This document shows positions 4,164 to 62,665 of a stretch of 64,000 bases of DNA, one piece after another. The notes beneath the pieces were generated by a model. It searched no databases and was not told the DNA's origin. It saw only the letters and a list, made by a program, of their open reading frames with translations. Source of the stretch: Gekko japonicus (taxonomy: Eukaryota); contig NW_015164187.1 in assembly GCF_001447785.1 (NCBI RefSeq), positions 676,552-740,551 on the forward strand, given 5' to 3'. A program made the position numbers and the translations under genes. The first letter of the stretch is position 1. The number at the start of each line of letters is the position of its first letter.

Positions 4164-5821
4164 CTTCACGTGTGTTCATGTGTCATCTCCTGACCACTGC
4201 CATGCAGTTTCTACACCAGGGAAATTCCAAGTGGTTGTAGTCCAGCAGGAACTCTACATTGTTTCAAGTTTCACCTTTATTACAACAGTGAACACACTCT
4301 TACTTCAGCCACAGAGCATTATCAGGAACTACTCTGGGGCTTATTTTAGCATCCATGTCATTCTATTATCGTTCTGATATGCAGTCTTCTGTTTTTGACC
4401 CTAACTACACTGAGATAAAAGATATAATCCACTAAATAATTCTCTTCTGGACTTCGTAATCAAGTTCATTCTGGGGCCAGGTAACACTTTCAAAATGGAT
4501 TCAGATCCTCCTACTTTGTTTATTAAAGAAGGTACTGTAATTTGTATAAACATTCAAAAGCCAATAGTATTTAAAATGCACAGATCAGGGTCCTCTGGGC
4601 TCCACATGGTCCCCTGGCATAGCAGACAGACGTCAAGGACTCTAGATGGCAGGTTTCACATATCTAATACCCAGAGACTTTTCATACTGGCTCACCTTAG
4701 GCCTACTCTTGGTCGATCAACAGGGCTGTACTTCCAGGCTTGTCTCCTGGACACTGCAGGGTGACAAGACAGTGTTAGATATGGGTGGGGGGTGTTAACG
4801 TTTAAACAAGCATTTTGAATATGAATTAATGCAGGTAGCTTTGTGCCAAAATATCTACCATTACTTTTTCCATCTATTCCAGGAGCAGCAAGATACACAC
4901 AGTAAAGTTTATTTTGGTCCTGGGTATACTTCACTCCCATTAAAAATAAATTAATCAGCAAATTCCTACACAGCTAAGCCTGCTTTTATGTAAATATAAC
5001 ACAGCTGTAATGAATTACAAGGTGTTATTATCTCACACACACGCACTGCATAATACTTCACACATAAGAGGTTTCTCTCTTTAGCTCAGCTTGCAACAAA
5101 AGCATCTTAAATAAACTGAGAAAAAATTGTTTGGTTTGTAATGTTTTCATAGAAGTGGAGTATACCTCACACATATAAGGTTTCTTTATATGACTCATTT
5201 TATAACAAGTTAAACTGAGGAAGTTTATTTTGGAAAACACTAACAAATTGGGGGTTTTGTACAAAGAAAATTGACTGGTAGCTGCTTCTAGAGCAAAGGC
5301 ACCCAGGAAAGGCTTCTCATATTTCATTTTGTTGTAAGTCTGTCCTTCACTGTATTTGTACTTTAAACATTTCTGAGGCATACATACTCCCCCTATCTGG
5401 AGATGCTGGGCTTTTTCAATGGCATTGCCAAGTTTTTAATGACTTTTATTGTCTTAATTGTAAGCAGCCTTGAGCAGGTGCTTGGAGAGGCGGTATAAAA
5501 TTTTCTACATAAAATTAATAAATTTGGAATTACTGCCTCCACTTTTAATTTGTTTCCTAAGATGGCAGCTGCATATCCATATATCCCTAACTAACTTGAT
5601 TCAAAGAAAAGTTGGGGAAAATGGACACGGGAGAGTGAATTAGTCAAACGTCTATTAAAAAATCAAATTGCCAAAATGTCTACATGAACAGGTGTGCCAG
5701 TGCAAATTTTGCATTTTTTTGACAAATGGACCAATAATGAAAGTTGAGGGACAATGATCGGAAAGAACGCCAATGTGAGATTTCTACTGAAGCCAACCAT
5801 TGAAAAATATTTATGTCTTCT

Positions 5822-12754: not shown

Positions 12755-13911
12755 GCAGCCTGGTAGGCTACTTAAAATCTATATCCCATCTTGAGGTACA
12801 AGCCAAAGATCAAGATAAAACTTTATGACTTGGGTAGCTCCAACCATCACACATAGGCATAATGGAACTTTTAAAATCTTGAATCTGTTTCCAGCTCTGG
12901 GAACAAAATGCAGATCTCTTCAAAGAAACTACTTAACCAACATGGATGACCCAGTGATGAAGGAATTAATCCAGGTATTGTTCTCTGTTCAGCTTCATGT
13001 TTTCCTGACCTAAGGCAATTTTCCCTTTAGCAAACTGCTGATGGTCTTCCTTTACCTCCAGTGTAAAGATAAGAACATTAAATACAGTGAGGCGATGGAG
13101 TCAATGTGACTGCTTTAACCAGATGGGAAGCACAAGCAACATGAGGCAGAATGATAGGGAGTGACTTCCTTCTCAGTGAACACACATTTTATTGGTTTAT
13201 AGGATAGCCATGCATGAGATTTTAACACTGGCCAGTAAGCACAGTGCCATCTTCTCTCCAAACAGATGATCACAGAATCATAGAATGATTCCATGCTGGA
13301 CGTATTTCCTGCACAGATCCATAATGGCAGATTATGCCTTCCACTGTTATAGCAAACTAAAGTTTGCAAAACAAAATTTCAAAATTTAGAGAAGGACCTG
13401 TGGTGAAGGTATGGGACACTGACATCTAATTAACAGGATGATGACATCATGCAAAATAAGTGTTTGAATCTCACTCCGCTACCTATATTTAACACTACAT
13501 GAATCTATGAGCTTATGCTGATGTAACAGGACTCTGATTTCTTAACCACTGTTAAGAGACCAGAAAAATGCACTCCCTTCTTCCAGGTTTTCAGTTTTCC
13601 TGTGCAAATTCCCCCACTTAATGGTTTAGACTTACCTCAACAGACACTTTAACTATGGTTAACACATCATTTCTTTCAGGGTTTCAAAACTCTGGTTAAC
13701 ATTAAGCTTTACTTAGGGTTAATCACAACTATAATCTGTCCTAAGAAACACCTTAACAATGGTTAAGGTTGATAGAGGAATTTGTAGTGATGGGAAGGCC
13801 AATCCATCACCCACAGGGCTCCTTAGATTAGCTCTGTTTGGGAAGCAAGCACAAATATTTCCATTGTTTGAAGAAGAGTGAAAATATCAACACTCCAAAC
13901 AGACTACCCAC

Positions 13912-14025
13912 CTGCTTGCGTATATATTCCACCATTATTTCTAGACGCCTTGGATCATCACACTGTTTATTAAACAGATTTCTCCAGATGGCTGCTGCAA
14001 GTACATGGTCATCTGATAGGATTCC
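13912..14025 (-). CDS. UQCC1: UQCC1 penultimate coding exon (GILSDDHVLAAAIWRNLFNKQCDDPRRLEIMVEYIRKQ)
   Basis: 114 bp, ttttag acceptor, gtgggt donor. Matches 'GILSDDH.LAAA.WR..FN..C.DPR.LE..VEY.RKQ'. Confidence 0.96.
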
Positions 14026-14323
14026 CTAAAATAAAGCAAGAAAAACAAAAAAAAAAGGGAAAATATAAAGCTCTAAACAGTAGACCAGGTTCAGGCTTAA
14101 TTCATTCTTCTTCAATTGGATCCTTCCTTCAGGAGATACCATTTGAAATGAATGTAGCCAAACCCATGAAAAGTTGCAATTTTCAAAAAGCATATTCAAT
14201 TCCATCCCCACCTCCCTTTTATTCACATATTATGTGTACAACGATGTGTATTTCATGCATAAGCTGGTACTGGGAGTAGTATTTAGAAAATAAAGCAAGC
14301 TTCTATCTTTCATGGCTGCAAAG

Positions 14324-14746
14324 TGTCAGCAAGCTGCCATTCTGTTTTCTGTGACCTCTGTGTACATATCCTTTCCCTGTTGCACCCGGCTTGTTTTCTA
14401 TCATCCTGCTCCTGCGTTGGAATGCACAAGATAACTGCTGGAGGTTGTGTGGGGGAGAAGATGCTGTAATGCTTGCCTATTGCTTTTCTCATGAGTACTG
14501 CACCTGTGTTTTGTCTGATGTTCTGCCTGGTTCCCATGGACTGGGCGCGCAACCGTTTCATTAGCCCGCCAGCGGGAATGCTATTCATTGGATCTGTATC
14601 TGTTTGAATTTCCTTTATTATGCTTGACCTAACTGTGTATCCCCAGTTCTAACAAAGAACGTGTTTGAGTATGTCTTCAACGCTTTGAAATAAATTTTGC
14701 TTTTCTTGAAAACGTGGATTTATTCTCGATGCTTGGGGATCCAACA
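14324..14746 (+). repeat. LTR copy 1
   Basis: TGTCAGCAAG...GGATCCAACA; reads identical to LTR3. Confidence 0.95.
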
Positions 14747-15109
14747 TATTGTTAGAACTGGGGATACACCACCTGGGGGGGGGCTGTGGTCACCCGTGCG
14801 CAAGCGCGATCGATTCCGCGCTCTGATGACACTTCGCCTTCCCTTTTCCCTGTGGGGGGGGGCCTGGGTTCAGAAATATATGTCTGCTTTTACTGCTGAT
14901 GATGATGCCTCCCTGAAAACGTTGCCAGATTGTGTCCGTAGCCCTGAAGGTCTGATTTATTCTGGAGACAAACTGTATGTGCCTATTTCGATGAGGAGGG
15001 AGGTGATGGATTCTGCTCACGGTTCGAAACTGGCGGGGCATTGGAGTTTTGTTAAATCTCCCGCCCGACCCGGGAGGTGTGTTGTAAGTGTATTTTAAGG
15101 GGGGCAGTA

Positions 15110-15532
15110 TGTCAGCAAGCTGCCATTCTGTTTTCTGTGACCTCTGTGTACATATCCTTTCCCTGTTACACCCGGCTTGGCTTCTATCATCCTGCTCCTG
15201 CTTTGGAATGCAAAAGATAACTGCTGGAGGTTGTGTGGGGGAGAAGATGCTGTAATGCTTGCCTATTGATTTTCCCAGGACTACTGCACCTGTGTTTTGT
15301 CTGATGTTCTGCCTGGTTCCCATGGACTGGGCGCGCAACCGTTTCATTAGCCCGCCAGCGGGAATGCTATTCATTGGATCTGTATCTGTTTGAAGTTCCT
15401 TTATTATGCTTGACCTAACTGTGTATCCCCAGTTCTAACAAAGAACGTGTTTGAGTATGTCTTCAACGCTTTGAAATAAATTTTGCTTTTCTTGAAAACG
15501 TGGATTTATTCTCGATGCTTGGGGATCCAACA
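15110..15532 (+). repeat. LTR copy 2 (internal, diverged)
   Basis: About 10 substitutions versus LTR1 and LTR3 by manual count. Confidence 0.95.
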
Positions 15533-15579
15533 TATTGTTAGAACTCTCTTTCTCCTATCGTTCCGAATCTGGCAAGATC

Positions 15580-15996
15580 ATGAGCGGAATTGAGGGAAAT
15601 CTACCTAACACGGAGGGGGACTCGGGATCGGTCCCACAAACCTCCGCGTCTTTGGTGTTCACGACTGCAGCCTCGATGGAGGGTGCCGTGGGGGGAACGA
15701 TTCCCCGCCTGCCTGCACATCTGTCTTGGCCGCCTCCGACCCCTTCGCAATGGGGTCCGCGGAAGACTCACCAGCAGGATGATTGGACTATGTACAACAC
15801 CCAAGGCACCCGTGAGGTGTACTCCCGTCGGGGGAGCGGATTACGTGAGAGTCTGTTTGACAAGGGATTGTTCCCGGAACCTGGGTCTACCTCGGAGAAG
15901 GGGAGCCCCAAGCAGGACCTCGAGGAGTGGATGTTCGAGCCGTCGGGACCGCGTGGTCACGCAGAAGATGAGGAGGGCACCGGAGCCCTTACCTGA
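15580..15996 (+). pseudogene. Truncated gag-like 5' ORF of the LTR element
   Basis: ATG about 35 nt after the PBS (MSGIEGNLPNTEGDSGS...), open until the junction with the pol 3' end. Gag identity is inferred from position only. Confidence 0.55.
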
Positions 15997-16110
15997 TCCG
16001 TAGTTTCCACAAGAGGTTCCCGGACAAACCGGGAGGTCTCCCGCCCAGCCCGGGAGATCTCCCGCCCGACCCGGGAGGTGTGTTGTAAGTGTATTTTAAG
16101 GGGGGCAGTA

Positions 16111-16533
16111 TGTCAGCAAGCTGCCATTCTGTTTTCTGTGACCTCTGTGTACATATCCTTTCCCTGTTGCACCCGGCTTGTTTTCTATCATCCTGCTCCT
16201 GCGTTGGAATGCACAAGATAACTGCTGGAGGTTGTGTGGGGGAGAAGATGCTGTAATGCTTGCCTATTGCTTTTCTCATGAGTACTGCACCTGTGTTTTG
16301 TCTGATGTTCTGCCTGGTTCCCATGGACTGGGCGCGCAACCGTTTCATTAGCCCGCCAGCGGGAATGCTATTCATTGGATCTGTATCTGTTTGAATTTCC
16401 TTTATTATGCTTGACCTAACTGTGTATCCCCAGTTCTAACAAAGAACGTGTTTGAGTATGTCTTCAACGCTTTGAAATAAATTTTGCTTTTCTTGAAAAC
16501 GTGGATTTATTCTCGATGCTTGGGGATCCAACA
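16111..16533 (+). repeat. LTR copy 3
   Basis: Preceded by the PPT and followed by the TSD. Confidence 0.95.
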
Positions 16534-16559
16534 CAAAGATCCATGTGTGCAAATGCCTG

Positions 16560-18235
16560 ACTACTGGTCTAGCTGCAGCCTTTGACACAGTAGATCCTGC
16601 TATCCTGTTGAGGCATCTGGAGGCAGAAGTAGGTATCAGAGGATGTGCCCTTGGACTGTTTCAAATTGTTGCAGACAAACAGGACTCTGCCTTTGGAGAC
16701 CAGCTATCTTCCGTATGGGAGCTATCTTGTGGAGTTCCACAGCGTGCAACCTTTCATGTTATTCTACCTCTCTATAAAATCTTTAGGAGAAATCATTTGT
16801 AGCCTTGGAATTGGATGTTATTAATATGCAAATGACACCCAGCTCTGTATCCCTCTGTCCAAATCCCCTGGTGTTGAGCTGCAGGCCAACTGCTGCAGTC
16901 AAATGGTTGAAAGTTGAACAAACTGAAACCAAACCTAAATTTATTGATTTATCTGTTATTTATAGTCCACCCTTTTCACTTGGACAAGGCGGATTACACA
17001 GAGCGAGTCAATATAATTGACATGATGGGACATTAAATAAATAGTGGAGTAGGAATTAGGGTTGCCGAACCAACCAGAAATCTACAAACAGAACTGAAGC
17101 AAAGCATAAATATTACTATGACACATAAAATGATATAAAAATTACATAGTGGGACCTAGATCCTGCAAGCTACACACAGGAGTATAGACAATGGTCGCCA
17201 GCCACCTCTGGTCACCAGTGGGCTGAGTTTCGGACTGGCCACAGAGCCATAAGACCCTGCTCTGATGAGCCCAGTTGCTGTGACAGAGCATGGGAAGAGG
17301 AGACCTCGCAGCTATGAGGGTCCAAGGCCATGACTGGATTTGTATGCAACAGCTAATACTTTAAATTGAGCCTAGTACCTGATGGGCAGCTAGTGAAATG
17401 CCTGCAGGATGGGAGTGATATGCGTGCTCCATCTAGCTCCCGATTATAGCTGAGCCACAGCATTCTGCACCAAGTGGTGTTTCTGAATAGATTTTGAGGG
17501 GACACCAATGTATAGTGCATTACAGTAGTCTAGACTCCATGTTATTGTGGCACGGATCCAGGTGGCCAGATCAGCTGTATCAAGGTAAGGGGACATCTTT
17601 CGGGCTAGGCTGGGTCAGAAGAAAGCCTTTTCCTCAGCTGCATTAACTTGGTTCTCCAGTAATAACACTGAGTCTAGTATAACCCCAAGGTTCTTAACTG
17701 AGTCAGCAAGGGTTGGCTGTTCAGGATTCAATTCCAAATTGTTCACTCTTAGCTAATTACCACAGCAACTAGGCAGTGACCTCTATTGCATTACCAGGGC
17801 ATTTGGATAAGGATTTACAGAGCCCAGTATCTGCATGCACATCCAACACCAAAGCTGCAAATGATTTGTCTTAAGAGCTTTACATAGAGATTGAAAAGCA
17901 TGGTGGATAGAATTGCATCCTGTGGAATGCCACGTGATAGGTTCCACACTGATAACAACTGGTCTCCAACAGCAACTCTTTGAGTCTGATCCGTGAGGAA
18001 TGATTTCAACCAGTTCAGTGTGCATCCCCGATACCTACTTCTGCTTGCAAATGCCTCAACAAGATGGTATGATCTCCTGTAGTAAAGGCTGCAGATAAAA
18101 CCTTGAAGGACATTGCATTTCCCACTTTTGATAGGGTTCAGGTGACCCTTGTTGATTCGGTTAAGAGCCTTAGGTGTTATTACTGGACCCAACATTGCAG
18201 CTGGTGAAACAAGTTAATGCAGCTGCAAAAAAATT
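16560..18235. mobile_element. Degraded L2 pieces: plus-strand RT fragment (16560-16935, 18110-18235) interrupted by a minus-strand L2 of similar family (about 16937-18110)
   Basis: AAFDTVD...GVPQ on +; GIPQDAILSTMLFNLYVK on -; L2 tail near 16940. Confidence 0.7.
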
Positions 18236-18767: not shown

Positions 18768-18970
18768 ACGAAGCTGCTTTGTATTGAATCAGACCACTGG
18801 TCCATCAAGGTCAGTGTTGTCTACTCAGACTGGCAGCAGGCTCTCCAGGGTCACAGGCTGAGAGGTCTTCCACATCACCTACTGCCAGATTATTCAACTG
18901 GAAATGCCAGGGATTGAACCTGAGACCTTCTGCATGCCAAGCAGATGCTCTGCTACTAAGCCACAGCCCC
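18768..18970 (-). mobile_element. tRNA-derived SINE
   Basis: Minus strand GGGGCTGTGGCTTAGTAGCAGAGC...GGTTCAATCCC (A/B boxes). Confidence 0.8.
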
Positions 18971-45189: not shown

Positions 45190-48100
45190 CCCCCTCATGG
45201 ATGTCATGTTCGGTGTTGCCCATTTGGTGATGTCATCCCCCTCATCCCCCTCCCTTGTCATGGCGAGGGAGCTTGAGCAGTTCAATGAAGCTGTGGGCTA
45301 TGCCGTGAAGGGCCACCCAAGACGGACAGGCCACAGCAGAGAACTCAGACCAAGTGTGATCCACTGGAGAAGGAAATGGCAACCCACTCCAGTATCTTTG
45401 CCAAGAAAACCCTATGGACAGTAACAAAAGGCTAAAAGATATGACGCCGGAAGATGAGCCCCTCAGGTCGGAAGGTGTCCAATATGCTACTGAGGAAGAG
45501 CAAAGGGCAAGTACAAGTAACCCCAGAAAGAGTGAAGTGGCTGGGCCAAAGCCGAAAGGATGCTCAGTTGTGGATGTGTCTGATGGTGAAAGGAAAGTTC
45601 GATGCTGCAAAGAACAATACTACATAGGAACCTGGAATGTAAGATCTATGAATCAAGGTAAGCTTGACGTGGTCAAAGAGATGGCAAGACTGAACATCGA
45701 TATCCTAGGAATCAGTGAACTAAAGTGGACAGGAATGGGCGAATTTAACTCAGAAGACCATTATATCTACTACTGTGGCCAGGAATCTCGTAGAAAAAAT
45801 GGTGTGGCCTTTATAGTCAACAAGAGAGTGCAAAAGTCAGTATTGGGATACAATCTCAAAAATGACAAAATTGATTTCGGTCCGATTCCAAGGCAAACCA
45901 TTCAACATCACAGTAATCCAAGGCTATGCCCCAACCACTGATGCAGAAGAGGCTGAAGTGGACCGGTTCTATGAAGACCTACAACACCTCCTAGAACTAA
46001 CACCAAAAAATGATGTCCTCATCATCATAGGGGACTGGAATGCTAAAGTAGGAAGTCAAAAGGTAACCGGAATAACAGACAAGTTTGGCCTTGGAAAGCA
46101 AAATGAAGCAGGGCAAAGGTTAACAGAGTTTTGTCAAGAGAACACACTGGTCATAGCGAACACCCTTTTCCAACAACCTAAGAGACGACTCTACACATGG
46201 ACATCACCAGATGGGCAACACCGAAATCAGATTGACTATATAATTTGCAGTCAAAGATGGAGAAGCTCTATCCAGTCAGTAAAAACAAGACCTGGAGCTG
46301 ACTGTGGTTCAGATCATGAGCTACTCATTGCAAAATTCAGACTTAAACTGAAGAAAATTGGGAAAACCACGAGGCCATTCAGGTTTGACCTAGATCGCAT
46401 CCCTGATGAATATACAGTAGAGGTGAAGAATAGATTCAAGGGTCTGGATTTGATAGATAGAGTGCCTGAAGAACTATGGACGGAGGTTCGTGACATTGTA
46501 CAGGAGGCAGCAATCACCACCATACCAAAGAAAAAGAAATGCAAGAAAGCAAAATGGCTTTCTGATGAGGCTTTACAAATAGCAGAGGAAAGAAGGAAAG
46601 CGAAAGGCAAAGGCGAAAAGGAAAGATTTACCCAACTGAACGCAGATTTCCAGAGAACAGCAAGGAGAGATAAGGAGGCCTTCCTGAATGAACAGTGCAA
46701 AGTAATAGAAGAAAACAATAGAATGGGAAGGACTAGAGATCTCTTCAAGAAAATTGGAGAAATCAAGGGAGCGTTCCATGCAAAGCTGGCCATGATAAAG
46801 GACAAAAACGGTAGGGACCTAACAGAAGCAGAAGAGATTAGGAAAAGATGGCAAGAATACACAGAAGAACTATACAAGAAAGACCTCGATGTCCTTGACA
46901 ACCACGACGGTATAATCACTGACCTCGAGCCAGACATCCTGGAATGTGAAGTTAAATGGGCCTTAGAAAGCATTACTAACAACAAAGCTAGTGGAGGTGA
47001 TGGTATCCCAGCTGAGCTATTCAAAGTCTTAGAAGAGGATGCTGTTAAAGTTCTGCACTCCATTTGCCAGCAAATTTGGAAAACGCAACAGTGGCCACAG
47101 GATTGGAAAAGATCAGTATACATTCCAATCCCAAAGAAGGGCAATGCCAAGGAATGTTCAAACTATCGCACAATTGCACTCATATCACACGCTAGCAAGG
47201 TCATGCTCAAGATCCTACAAGCTAGGCTTCAACAGTACGTGGATAGAGAACTACCAGAAGTACAAGCTGGGTTTCGAAGAGGTAGAGGAACGAGAGATCA
47301 TATTGCCAACATTCGCTGGATTATGGAGAAAGCAAGAGAGTACCAGAAAAATATCTACTTCTGCTTCATTGACTATGCTAAAGCCTTTGACTGTGTGGAT
47401 CACAACAAACTATGGCAGGTCCTTAAAGAGATGGGAGTACCAGACCACCTCACATGTCTCTTGAGAAACCTGTATAAGGGCCAAGAAGCGACAGTTAGAA
47501 CCGGATACGGAACAACTGATTGGTTCAGCATAGGAAAAGGAGTACGACAAGGATGTATACTGTCACCTTGCTTATTTAATATATATGCAGAGTACATCAT
47601 GCGAAATGCTGGCCTGGATGAATCACAAGCGGGAATTAAGATTGCTGGGGAAAAGATCAACAACCTCAGATATGCAGATGATACCACTCTAATGGCTGAA
47701 AGTGAAAAGGATCTAAAGAGCCTCTTGCTCAGAGTAAAAGAGGAGAGCGCAAAAGTGGGCTTGAAGCTCAACATCAAAAAAACTAAGATCATGGCATCCG
47801 GCCCCATCACTCCTTGGCAAATAGAAGGGGAAGTCGTGGAAGTAGTGACAGACTTCACGTTCCTGGGATCCCAGATCACCGCAGACTGTGACTGCAGCCA
47901 TGAAATTAAAAGACGCCTGCTCCTTGGGAGGAAAGCGATGGCGAACCTAAACAGAATGTTAAAAAGTAGAGACATCACCCTGCCAACAAAAGTCCGCATG
48001 GTCAAAGCAATGGTATTCCCAGTAGTCATGTATGGCTGCGAGAGTTGGACTATAAGGAAGGCCGAGCGCCGAAGAATAGATTCTTTTGAACTATGGTGCT

Positions 48101-48439
48101 GGAGAAGACTCTTGAGAGTCCCTTGGACTGCAAAAAGATCAAATCAGTCAATCCTAAAAGAAATCAACCCTGACTGCTCCCTGGAAGGCCAGATAATACT
48201 TTGGCCACCAAATGAGAAGGGAGCACTCACTGGAGAAGACCCTGATGCTGGGAAAGATTGAAGGTCAAAGAAGACGGGGACGGCAAAGGATGAGATGGTT
48301 AGACAGTGTCATCGATGCAACGAACATGAAATTGAGCACACTTCAGAGGACGGCGGAAGACAGGAGGGCCTGGAGGGAGATGATCCATGGGGTCGCGAAG
48401 AGTCTGACTCGACTGTGCGACTGAACAACAACAACAACA
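45190..48439 (+). mobile_element. Near full-length RTE-BovB LINE, 12-bp TSD
   Basis: EN (IGTWNVRSM, GDWNAKVG, NQIDYI, GSDHEL) and RT (NYRTIALISH, QAGFRRGRGT, LRYADD) domains, (CAA)n tail. TSD ACATGTTGTCAT at 45178-45189 and 48440-48451. Confidence 0.97.
45414..48424 (+). pseudogene. BovB endonuclease-reverse transcriptase ORF with two frameshifts
   Basis: Split across ORFs 45414..45941, 45862..48261 and 48212..48424. Frameshift near 45870 and a 17-bp deletion near 48196 relative to the copy at 24251. Confidence 0.93.
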
Positions 48440-62095: not shown

Positions 62096-62665
62096 TTTAA
62101 AAAAAACTTTTTTTGTATTTTTGATATGTGTGTGTGTGTGCGCATGCACCTGGAAGTCATGGCAACCTCTGGTGACTGACTGTGTGTGCCCCAGAAATCA
62201 TGGCAATCACCGGTGACTAACCCCTACTGGGGGCCTGGAGGATATTCAGAGAGGTGACTGAATAAAGCCTGTCTCCGCCTCCAGTTTGGTGCAGTGGTTA
62301 AGCGTGCAGACTCTAATCTGGGAGAACCGGGTTTGATTCCCCACTCTTCCACTTGCAGTTGCTAGATGATCTTGGGCACGCCATAGTTCTGTCAGAGCTG
62401 TTCTCTCAAGAGCAGTTCTCAAAAGAGCTCTCTCAGCCCCACCTACCTCACAGGGCCTGTTGTTGGGAGGGGAAGGGAAAGGAGTTTGTAAGCCGCTCTG
62501 AGCCTCTGAGTGAAGGGTAGGGTGTAAATCCAATCTCTTCTCTTCTTCTTCTCCCACCTCTGGTATTTCAAAGAGGTCTCCCATCCAAGGACTTGCCAGA
62601 GTTGACTCTGCTTAGCTTCCGAGATCTGATGAGATCGGGCTTGCCGGGGCTATCCAGGTCAGGGC
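62096..62665 (-). mobile_element. 5S rRNA-derived SINE with 16-bp TSD, interrupted by a Squam3-like SINE
   Basis: Head CCCGATCTCATCAGATCTCGGAAGCTAAGCAG...CTTGGATGGGAGACC. TSD TGAACTAATTTATTTC at 62080-62095 and 62666-62681. Confidence 0.88.
62281..62552 (+). mobile_element. Squam3-like SINE nested in 5S SINE
   Basis: CCAGTTTGGTGCAGTGGTTAAG head, (TTC)n tail. Confidence 0.85.

Follow-up and report, generated by a model that had tools for sequence, protein, structure and literature searches.

A polymorphic three-LTR insertion in Gekko japonicus built from pieces of an abundant chromovirus family, probably in one aberrant round of reverse transcription

Insertions with three LTRs are already known from plants and fission yeast. 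In grasses, three-LTR insertions with one TSD and matching outer LTRs were proposed to be template-switch products (PMC1950507), a rare class with 2 members among 400 Triticeae insertions (Sabot and Schulman 2007, PMC1950507) and, according to the accessible text of Zeng and Sun (10.1101/452573), 2 among 4,704 rice and maize candidates. Three-LTR forms were also surveyed in rice, as described in the accessible parts of two sources (10.1101/452573; PMC11899658), the second of which still calls the origin of shared-LTR tandems open. For Tf1 and sushi elements, the accessible parts of the literature describe self-priming, in which the PBS pairs with the element's own LTR (PMC4600332, PMC6317226, 10.1101/2022.12.06.519325); for vertebrate sushi elements the same parts of two of these sources present it as implicated or likely, not demonstrated (PMC4600332, PMC6317226). 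Tf2 transcription can begin downstream of the self-primer and yield an RNA unable to prime, according to an excerpt of PMC5341516. From the accessible text of Li et al. 2022 (PMC11042837), Tf1 makes integrase-independent tandems by annealing into existing Tf2 copies, and about half of Tf1 cDNA retains a single-stranded PBS tail.

The window analysed here, i.e. the whole 64,000-nucleotide stretch of Gekko japonicus contig NW_015164187.1, contains an element in which three LTRs alternate with two short cores and whose sequence contains no N (Table 1). The outer LTRs, with TG...CA termini, are identical at 423 of 423 positions, and LTR2 differs from them at exactly 10 sites, all within LTR positions 59-286. 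CAAAG is the sole 5-bp TSD and encloses the entire element (chance of a random 5-mer match, ~0.001); no internal TSD was found at the inner LTR borders, both of which have a PPT at the left and a PBS at the right. The cores, of 363 and 578 bp, have a common 13-nt prefix and a common 54-nt suffix and lack an intact coding frame, each with a PBS and a PPT. An earlier sequence-only reading had described this organization correctly, from the order LTR1-segment 1-LTR2-segment 2-LTR3 under one 5-bp TSD, through the identical outer LTRs and a middle LTR with about 10 differences, to the two cores as different derivatives sharing the PBS and the last ~54 bp. It overlooked that the 11-nt PBS is the exact complement of the element's own LTR 322-332 and that the PBS of segment 1 is extended by 10 bases of inverted U3, forming a 21-nt inverted repeat. 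Elsewhere in the window, an inverted pair of an old repeat fragment (16570-16872 and 17793-18097, 69% alike) lies to the right of the insertion, followed by a tRNA-Ala(GGC)-like gene (18899-18970, minus strand), an 814-aa open frame (45817-48261, plus strand), probably for the endonuclease and reverse transcriptase of an RTE-type LINE, and a 5S rRNA-like copy that narrowly passes the threshold (62547-62663, minus strand).

Table 1 Features of the three-LTR element, in window coordinates.
Feature	Position	Strand	Remarks
Left TSD copy CAAAG	14319..14323	+	One copy kept in the empty site
LTR1, 423 bp	14324..14746	+	Equals LTR3 and the middle LTR of the commonest three-LTR class
LTR 322-332, predicted self-primer and predicted U3/R border	14645..14655	+	PBS complementarity; putative transcription start
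PBS1, 11 nt, after TA spacer	14749..14759	+	
Fold-back tail, inverted LTR 321 to 312, continuing the PBS directly	14760..14769	+	
pol fragment with the RNase H-integrase linker and the beginning of the integrase zinc-binding domain (ruler 4192-4483)	14769..15060	+	
Last 54 nt of internal region with PPT	15056..15109	+	5-nt microhomology to pol fragment; unique junction
LTR2, different U3 haplotype	15110..15532	+	
PBS2, with normal downstream leader	15535..15545	+	
Leader plus 5' gag, ending at ruler 878, with an ATG at 15580	15546..15987	+	
Last 125 nt of internal region: pol C-terminus, PPT	15986..16110	+	2-nt microhomology to gag; unique junction
LTR3, identical to LTR1	16111..16533	+	
Right TSD copy CAAAG	16534..16538	+	

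Four public sequencing runs were compared with window positions 13300-17500. A contig from another sample (run X1) joined 14318 to 16534, skipping 2,215 bases, with 5 letters that fit both sides, and this clean empty site identifies the element as one polymorphic insertion. In run X2, a flank contig broke off at 14323, a further 21 letters being unaligned. Neither the whole element nor its private junctions were spanned by any read or contig among the contigs or the ~3-12% of raw runs compared, and the internal order of the pieces is that of the assembly. With 0 differences in 423 positions between its outer LTRs, the insertion is recent. The element is a single polymorphic, TSD-flanked insertion made from pieces of an abundant chromovirus family, and the locus is one-off noncoding debris without any intact protein-coding frame, for which no offspring was detected. 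The single TSD, the identical outer LTRs and the X1 empty site bear out the earlier proposal that one reverse-transcribed molecule integrated once; its dismissal of nesting and local duplication likewise stands, with no internal TSD and a colinear empty site.

The assembly (2.49 Gb in 191,500 contigs) yielded 3,361 candidate relatives, 40 of which were scored, many of them near-identical. A complete family copy consists of 5,349 bp between two LTRs (6.2 kb). Frames of fetched copies matched the Pfam families Retrotrans_gag, RVT_1, RT_RNaseH, Integrase_H2C2, rve, SH3_Tf2-1 and Chromo, the C-terminal chromodomain (PF00385, residues 1112-1161) scoring 25.5 bits against a cut-off of 25.1, and the pol frame of a fetched copy had the RT-RNase H-integrase order of Ty3/gypsy elements. 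The best PDB match of the family was Ty3 Gag-Pol (E 3.8e-123), and pol was split across two frames in several mapped copies. These domains of a 6.2-kb chromovirus agree with the sushi-like parent that had been suggested. Folding from the LTR2 equivalent of LTR 322 predicted an 11-bp helix between primer and PBS as well as a long stem in U5 (z -2.5; 2 of 200 shuffles equally good), with no duplex 3' of the PBS in the predicted leader fold. No RNA start at LTR 322 was seen in RNA reads; 14 RNA molecules in run X21 start at 14628, a start not recovered in a second comparison of reads, and in runs X21 and X24 the family LTR was deeply covered, far above gag (window 15110-15987). Judging from its domains and PBS-LTR complementarity, the family probably resembles the self-priming chromoviruses Tf1 and sushi.

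Placed on a ruler, the natural copy G000:C11177:1247964-1253735, which served for coordinates only, core 1 has the PBS followed by inverted LTR as far as position 312, then by ruler 4192-4483 and 5719-5772, and core 2 comprises ruler 424-878 joined to ruler 5648-5772; the three junctions overlap by 1, 5 and 2 nt. Core 2 is thus a gag start joined to the last 125 nt, just as first read. The integrase zinc-finger fragment reported for segment 1 does map to the start of that domain (first 25 of 59 profile positions) but, taken alone, stays below the Pfam cut-off (E 0.009). The gag fragment of core 2 had no Pfam match; the full gag frame of another copy matches Retrotrans_gag. Within an assembly whose family copies often hold N gaps that could hide a donor, the core-2 junction had 1 exact match, i.e. 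at this locus only, and the core-1 deletion junction had 1 match at ≤1 mismatch. The jump from a fold-back tail to this pol position was present at 1 of 33 fold-back loci, and the remaining scored matches to the cores all end at these junctions. Two-LTR versions of either segment, which the sequence-only reading had proposed to look for, were not found among the candidates scored (40 of 3,361 and 40 of 2,325) or by junction pattern searches. Since every junction is unique and the cores are pieces of an abundant chromovirus, there is no sign of a miniature family, and both segments are better read, from their sequences, as private deletions of the full-length family. The undescribed miniature family suggested earlier finds no support, the short cores recurring nowhere else in the assembly, and neither does a chimera of two pre-existing TRIM-like mini-elements, both deletion junctions being single-copy.

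LTR1, LTR3 and both core ends carry the main haplotype of the family, and the U3 of LTR2 and the gag piece belong to another subtype, the two being linked in further copies. Nine of the 10 LTR2 variants co-occur in other copies, several with the same gag subtype, and no LTR identical to LTR2 was present at other loci among 215 LTR hits (repeats included) in the fetched loci. The pol piece is closest to yet other copies, from which it differs by three substitutions and two homopolymer-length changes. Two templates would be enough if the second was mosaic; alternatively, there may have been three.

The passage from PBS1 into inverted U3 is not confined to this locus. An LTR end that leads through the PBS into 8 nt or more of inverted U3 was found at 33 places and the normal leader at 397, a fold-back share of 7.7% of these exact junctions, and reversed control patterns had 0 matches in the assembly. 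Because five places share one junction, the 33 correspond to 29 distinct events. When all 33 were mapped, most led from the tail to an internal site, five returned near the PBS, and several tails continued inverted to LTR position 1 or beyond; a matching 5-bp duplication, judged by eye, was present at 20 or more. Tail lengths cluster near 8-18, 35-36 and 59-67 nt. In 17 fold-back loci compared with their own adjacent LTR, short tails (29-74 nt aligned) had no mismatch in 10 of 10 cases, three of which have an LTR and tail only 93-96% like the ruler and still matching each other. At all 3 loci informative for long inverted tails, the tail differed from its neighbouring LTR, at 19, 14 and 2 sites, indicating that some tails are intermolecular; of the remaining comparisons, three were not comparable and one had only its second inverted piece aligned, with 1 mismatch. 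In run X22, from another sample, 47 raw DNA reads switch strand at the 11-nt PBS/R match, next to a depth of ~1,650 just after the PBS. The same change appears in 8 RNA reads, such reads at inverted repeats being possible library artefacts. The PBS tail of a self-priming element complements its own strand, so that a stalled plus strand folding back would be the simplest reading of the scar. An identical scar would result from DNA snap-back or from a self-primer RNA extended on its 5' side, and the clustered lengths fit alternative RNA starts too. No report of a PBS-inverted-U3 scar was found in the literature searched (few subscription journals, no supplements), and an earlier description is possible.

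The shared fold-back junction occurs at L181, L183, L190, L194 and L200, in which the tail runs to LTR 310 and continues at ruler 1188; in each of them a normal LTR-gag piece, of varying length, precedes the junction. Four of these loci have their own TSD, and no plain two-LTR copy of the ruler-1188 junction was present among the 33. At L124 (2307-2403; G000:C502), a 97-nt piece lies between the inverted LTR and the pol end. An origin of this long tail from a host read-in transcript was considered and rejected, as the piece is a fragment of another repeat, young and very abundant, with at least 39 other exact copies; judged by eye, it may be part of a CR1 ORF1 region. The joining of that repeat to the LTR was seen at C502 only, among 40 scored candidates.

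Internal LTRs were counted in the first 60 of 100 listed normal junctions in contig order, one being dropped for an N gap. A PPT directly precedes the LTR in 10 of the 59 sampled PBS-bearing LTRs (17%, 95% interval 8-29%), one of these ten being an LTR with an internal duplication. Across 25 cases, from sets with and without selection bias, a pol 3' end with a median of 358 nt makes up the first unit, and it does not exceed 600 nt in 16. The left end is a whole LTR plus fold-back tail at this locus, L124 and L193, merely 21-85 nt of U3 with a perfect TSD at L144, L153, C15669, L231 and L232, and elsewhere no LTR at all, mostly without a TSD. L193 is a direct analogue with an intact second unit, combining a fold-back, a 432-nt pol end, a middle LTR with 11 differences and identical outer LTRs; its TSD is GTGTA. 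The reversed pol-gag order stressed in the sequence-only reading is real; it is what copying across an LTR should yield, and many loci show it again with an intact second unit. Given ≥10 differences between LTR2 and LTR3, the left LTR piece is nearer LTR3 than LTR2 in 5 of 7 cases, with 1 tied and 1 reversed. In the standard model of reverse transcription the left-end U3 piece comes from plus-strand synthesis, which marks the forms with such a piece as reverse-transcription products.

Seven of the 10 internal LTRs match the window LTR1 sequence exactly, compared with 3 among the other 49 (Fisher p 3.6e-5). In the main class, 19 of 19 first units are identical to the twentieth (L228) over 10,586 nt, one of them across 2,849 nt; 13 of the 19 were retrieved in order of resemblance to the window, a ranking that selected for the LTR and last 54 nt, not for upstream identity. 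All 19 second units differ from the first-unit haplotype, at 2-50 sites, as do 6 of 6 plain copies tested, at 5-25 sites. These identities point to one read-through donor RNA, with pol end, PPT, LTR, PBS and gag in a row, which would derive from a tandem locus; a tandem donor locus with the first-unit haplotype was not found. A model that derives the first unit of this class from what remains of the second RNA at its 3' end was tried and rejected: the expected correlation of first-unit length with switch point came out non-significant (rho -0.41, p 0.28, n 9), and 0 of 19 second units match the first-unit haplotype through ruler 3646. Its failure favors a read-through donor for the main class.

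Further irregular copies were encountered in the family. The left end of G000:C11177:1247419 is pol sequence, not LTR, with GTGGG still on both sides, and no duplication was seen at most similar non-LTR left ends. Inverted LTRs or sizeable internal inversions mark the insertions L224, L125, L168, L182 and L141; L224 has inverted LTRs on either side, together with a GTAGA duplication. Eight loci (L114, L119, L137, L148, L157, L170, L220 and L221) stop abruptly, as assembled, in gag or pol, gapless and without a 3' LTR. In L115/L116 (C14) and L138/L139 (C610), of another subtype, a full unit is followed by a shared LTR and then by a partial gag unit without an end LTR.

We consider it probable (roughly 0.7) that the element arose when a single round of reverse transcription went astray on two RNAs of the family packaged together, and not from two mini-elements. 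The minus strand would start at the 3' end of RNA 1, the source of LTR3's U3 and of the last 125 nt, and would then slip to RNA 2 within gag and run through that RNA's unused PBS, U5 and R into a U3, which would produce LTR2. This LTR crossing is the least certain step: slightly better than even is the case for a read-through RNA with PPT-LTR-PBS, and slightly short of even that for a second R-to-R jump. After a second slip, in pol, synthesis would stop at ruler 4192, with no PBS complement at the minus-strand end, and the plus-strand strong-stop DNA (LTR plus PBS copy) would be left without an acceptor. Its PBS end may then have paired with its own R start and been extended by 10 nt along U3, and the extended fold-back end would have been joined to the broken minus-strand end. 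Both ends of the resulting molecule are normal LTR ends, so that integrase could insert it, with the 5-bp duplication. The short-U3 left ends with a perfect TSD at five loci support this course of events and are not explained by recombination into an old copy. Weighing against it, LTR2 lies outside the main read-through haplotype and its donor was not found among the fetched loci, and the segment haplotypes are mosaic.

The alternative that the three-LTR unit or its mini-units pre-existed, and were re-transposed from LTR1 as read-through RNA in the manner of a TRIM-like chimera, appears improbable to us. Normal copying of a tandem RNA would give the identical outer LTRs, but all junctions here are single-copy; rearranged forms can be inherited, as the five loci sharing the fold-back junction to ruler 1188 illustrate, yet in first position none of the 29 distinct fold-back junctions was met twice. 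L008 and L011 do carry a near-LTR1 U3 together with this gag subtype. The tail, however, replaces the leader beside PBS1 and would be expected to block priming, as Tf1 priming requires PBS-adjacent duplexes according to the accessible text of 10.1101/2022.12.06.519325.

Slightly less probable still is a later addition, in which LTR-segment 2-LTR integrated first and a second deleted cDNA was added upstream through PBS/LTR annealing, in the style of Tf1 into Tf2. It requires that a single, very young site received two private deletions independently, and the sole other allele seen (one run, X1) is empty, although such an addition would yield the single TSD, the shared foreign middle LTR and the new upstream unit, going by the accessible text of PMC11042837. 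That 10 of 10 LTR2 differences fall in U3 speaks weakly for it (p 0.063), whereas LTR2 and the gag that follows it are a subtype linked in other copies, and the short-U3 left ends with a TSD would be left unexplained.

We regard as very unlikely that the order of the pieces is an artefact of walking through near-identical LTRs during assembly. An assembly of so many contigs, with many gaps inside copies and no spanning read seen in the runs compared, invites the suspicion, but the flanks adjoin in the empty allele and the TSD matches, LTR2 has a private haplotype instead of being the commonest LTR, both segments are single-copy, and the same architecture recurs with a TSD at other loci. Simple nesting or unequal recombination of two neighbouring insertions, the usual source of shared-LTR complexes in plants (PMC1950507), is scarcely credible here, given the lack of an internal TSD, the matching outer TSD and the clean, colinear empty site.

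The locus is of value as a representative of a class that is frequent. Very young products with flanking TSDs, dozens in number, freeze intermediates, namely tails at the predicted primer, truncated U3 and one-donor first units, and the origin of tandems and self-priming in vertebrate sushi elements become testable by sequence alone. They also defeat dating by LTR divergence, the LTRs around a full-length second unit differing at up to 23 sites in a young insertion. More tentatively, and at somewhat less than even odds, we propose that self-priming LTR retrotransposons have a built-in fold-back failure mode that tRNA-primed ones lack, visible here as ~8% scarred junctions and about one-sixth internal LTRs, most of them seeded by one read-through master RNA. 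If this were true, an animal genome would preserve in these scars, at base level, the self-priming of a sushi-type element and its failures of plus-strand transfer, and the scars could serve as a cross-genome screen.

Compared with known systems, the parent family is like Tf1, Tf2 and sushi elements in its gag, RT, RNase H, integrase, SH3_Tf2-1 and C-terminal chromodomain, and in an 11-nt PBS that complements its own LTR, the predicted self-primer. The accessible parts of the accounts of those elements mention no genomic PBS-into-inverted-U3 copies (PMC4600332, PMC6317226, 10.1101/2022.12.06.519325). As in the Tf1-at-Tf2 tandems, as far as described in the accessible text, units share one LTR and the single-stranded PBS tail would be the reactive end; those tandems need a resident copy, whereas the other allele seen here is empty, and the sister loci of this element, unlike them, have truncated-U3 left ends with a TSD. 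TRIM families are multi-copy, with a fixed short core that recurs in independent insertions. Short units, a shared internal LTR and one TSD recall plant TRIM and tandem arrays (PMC11899658; see also PMC4079214 and PMC7215508), but with two differing, single-copy cores of coding fragments the element, by its sequence, is no TRIM family member. For the high rate of internal LTRs, their polarity and the single donor, no earlier account was found in the literature searched (few subscription journals, no supplements). The grass template-switch complexes resemble the element in their internal LTR, flanking TSD and outer LTRs that are most alike, and in a proposed origin from two RNAs ahead of integration, but have two complete cores, here deleted to 363 and 578 of 5,349 bp, and differ from it in the short pol 3' first unit, the frequency of internal LTRs (10 of 59) and the fold-back tail after the PBS. 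The element behaves as a template-switch complex would, but it is a polar variant with deletions and lacks complete cores.
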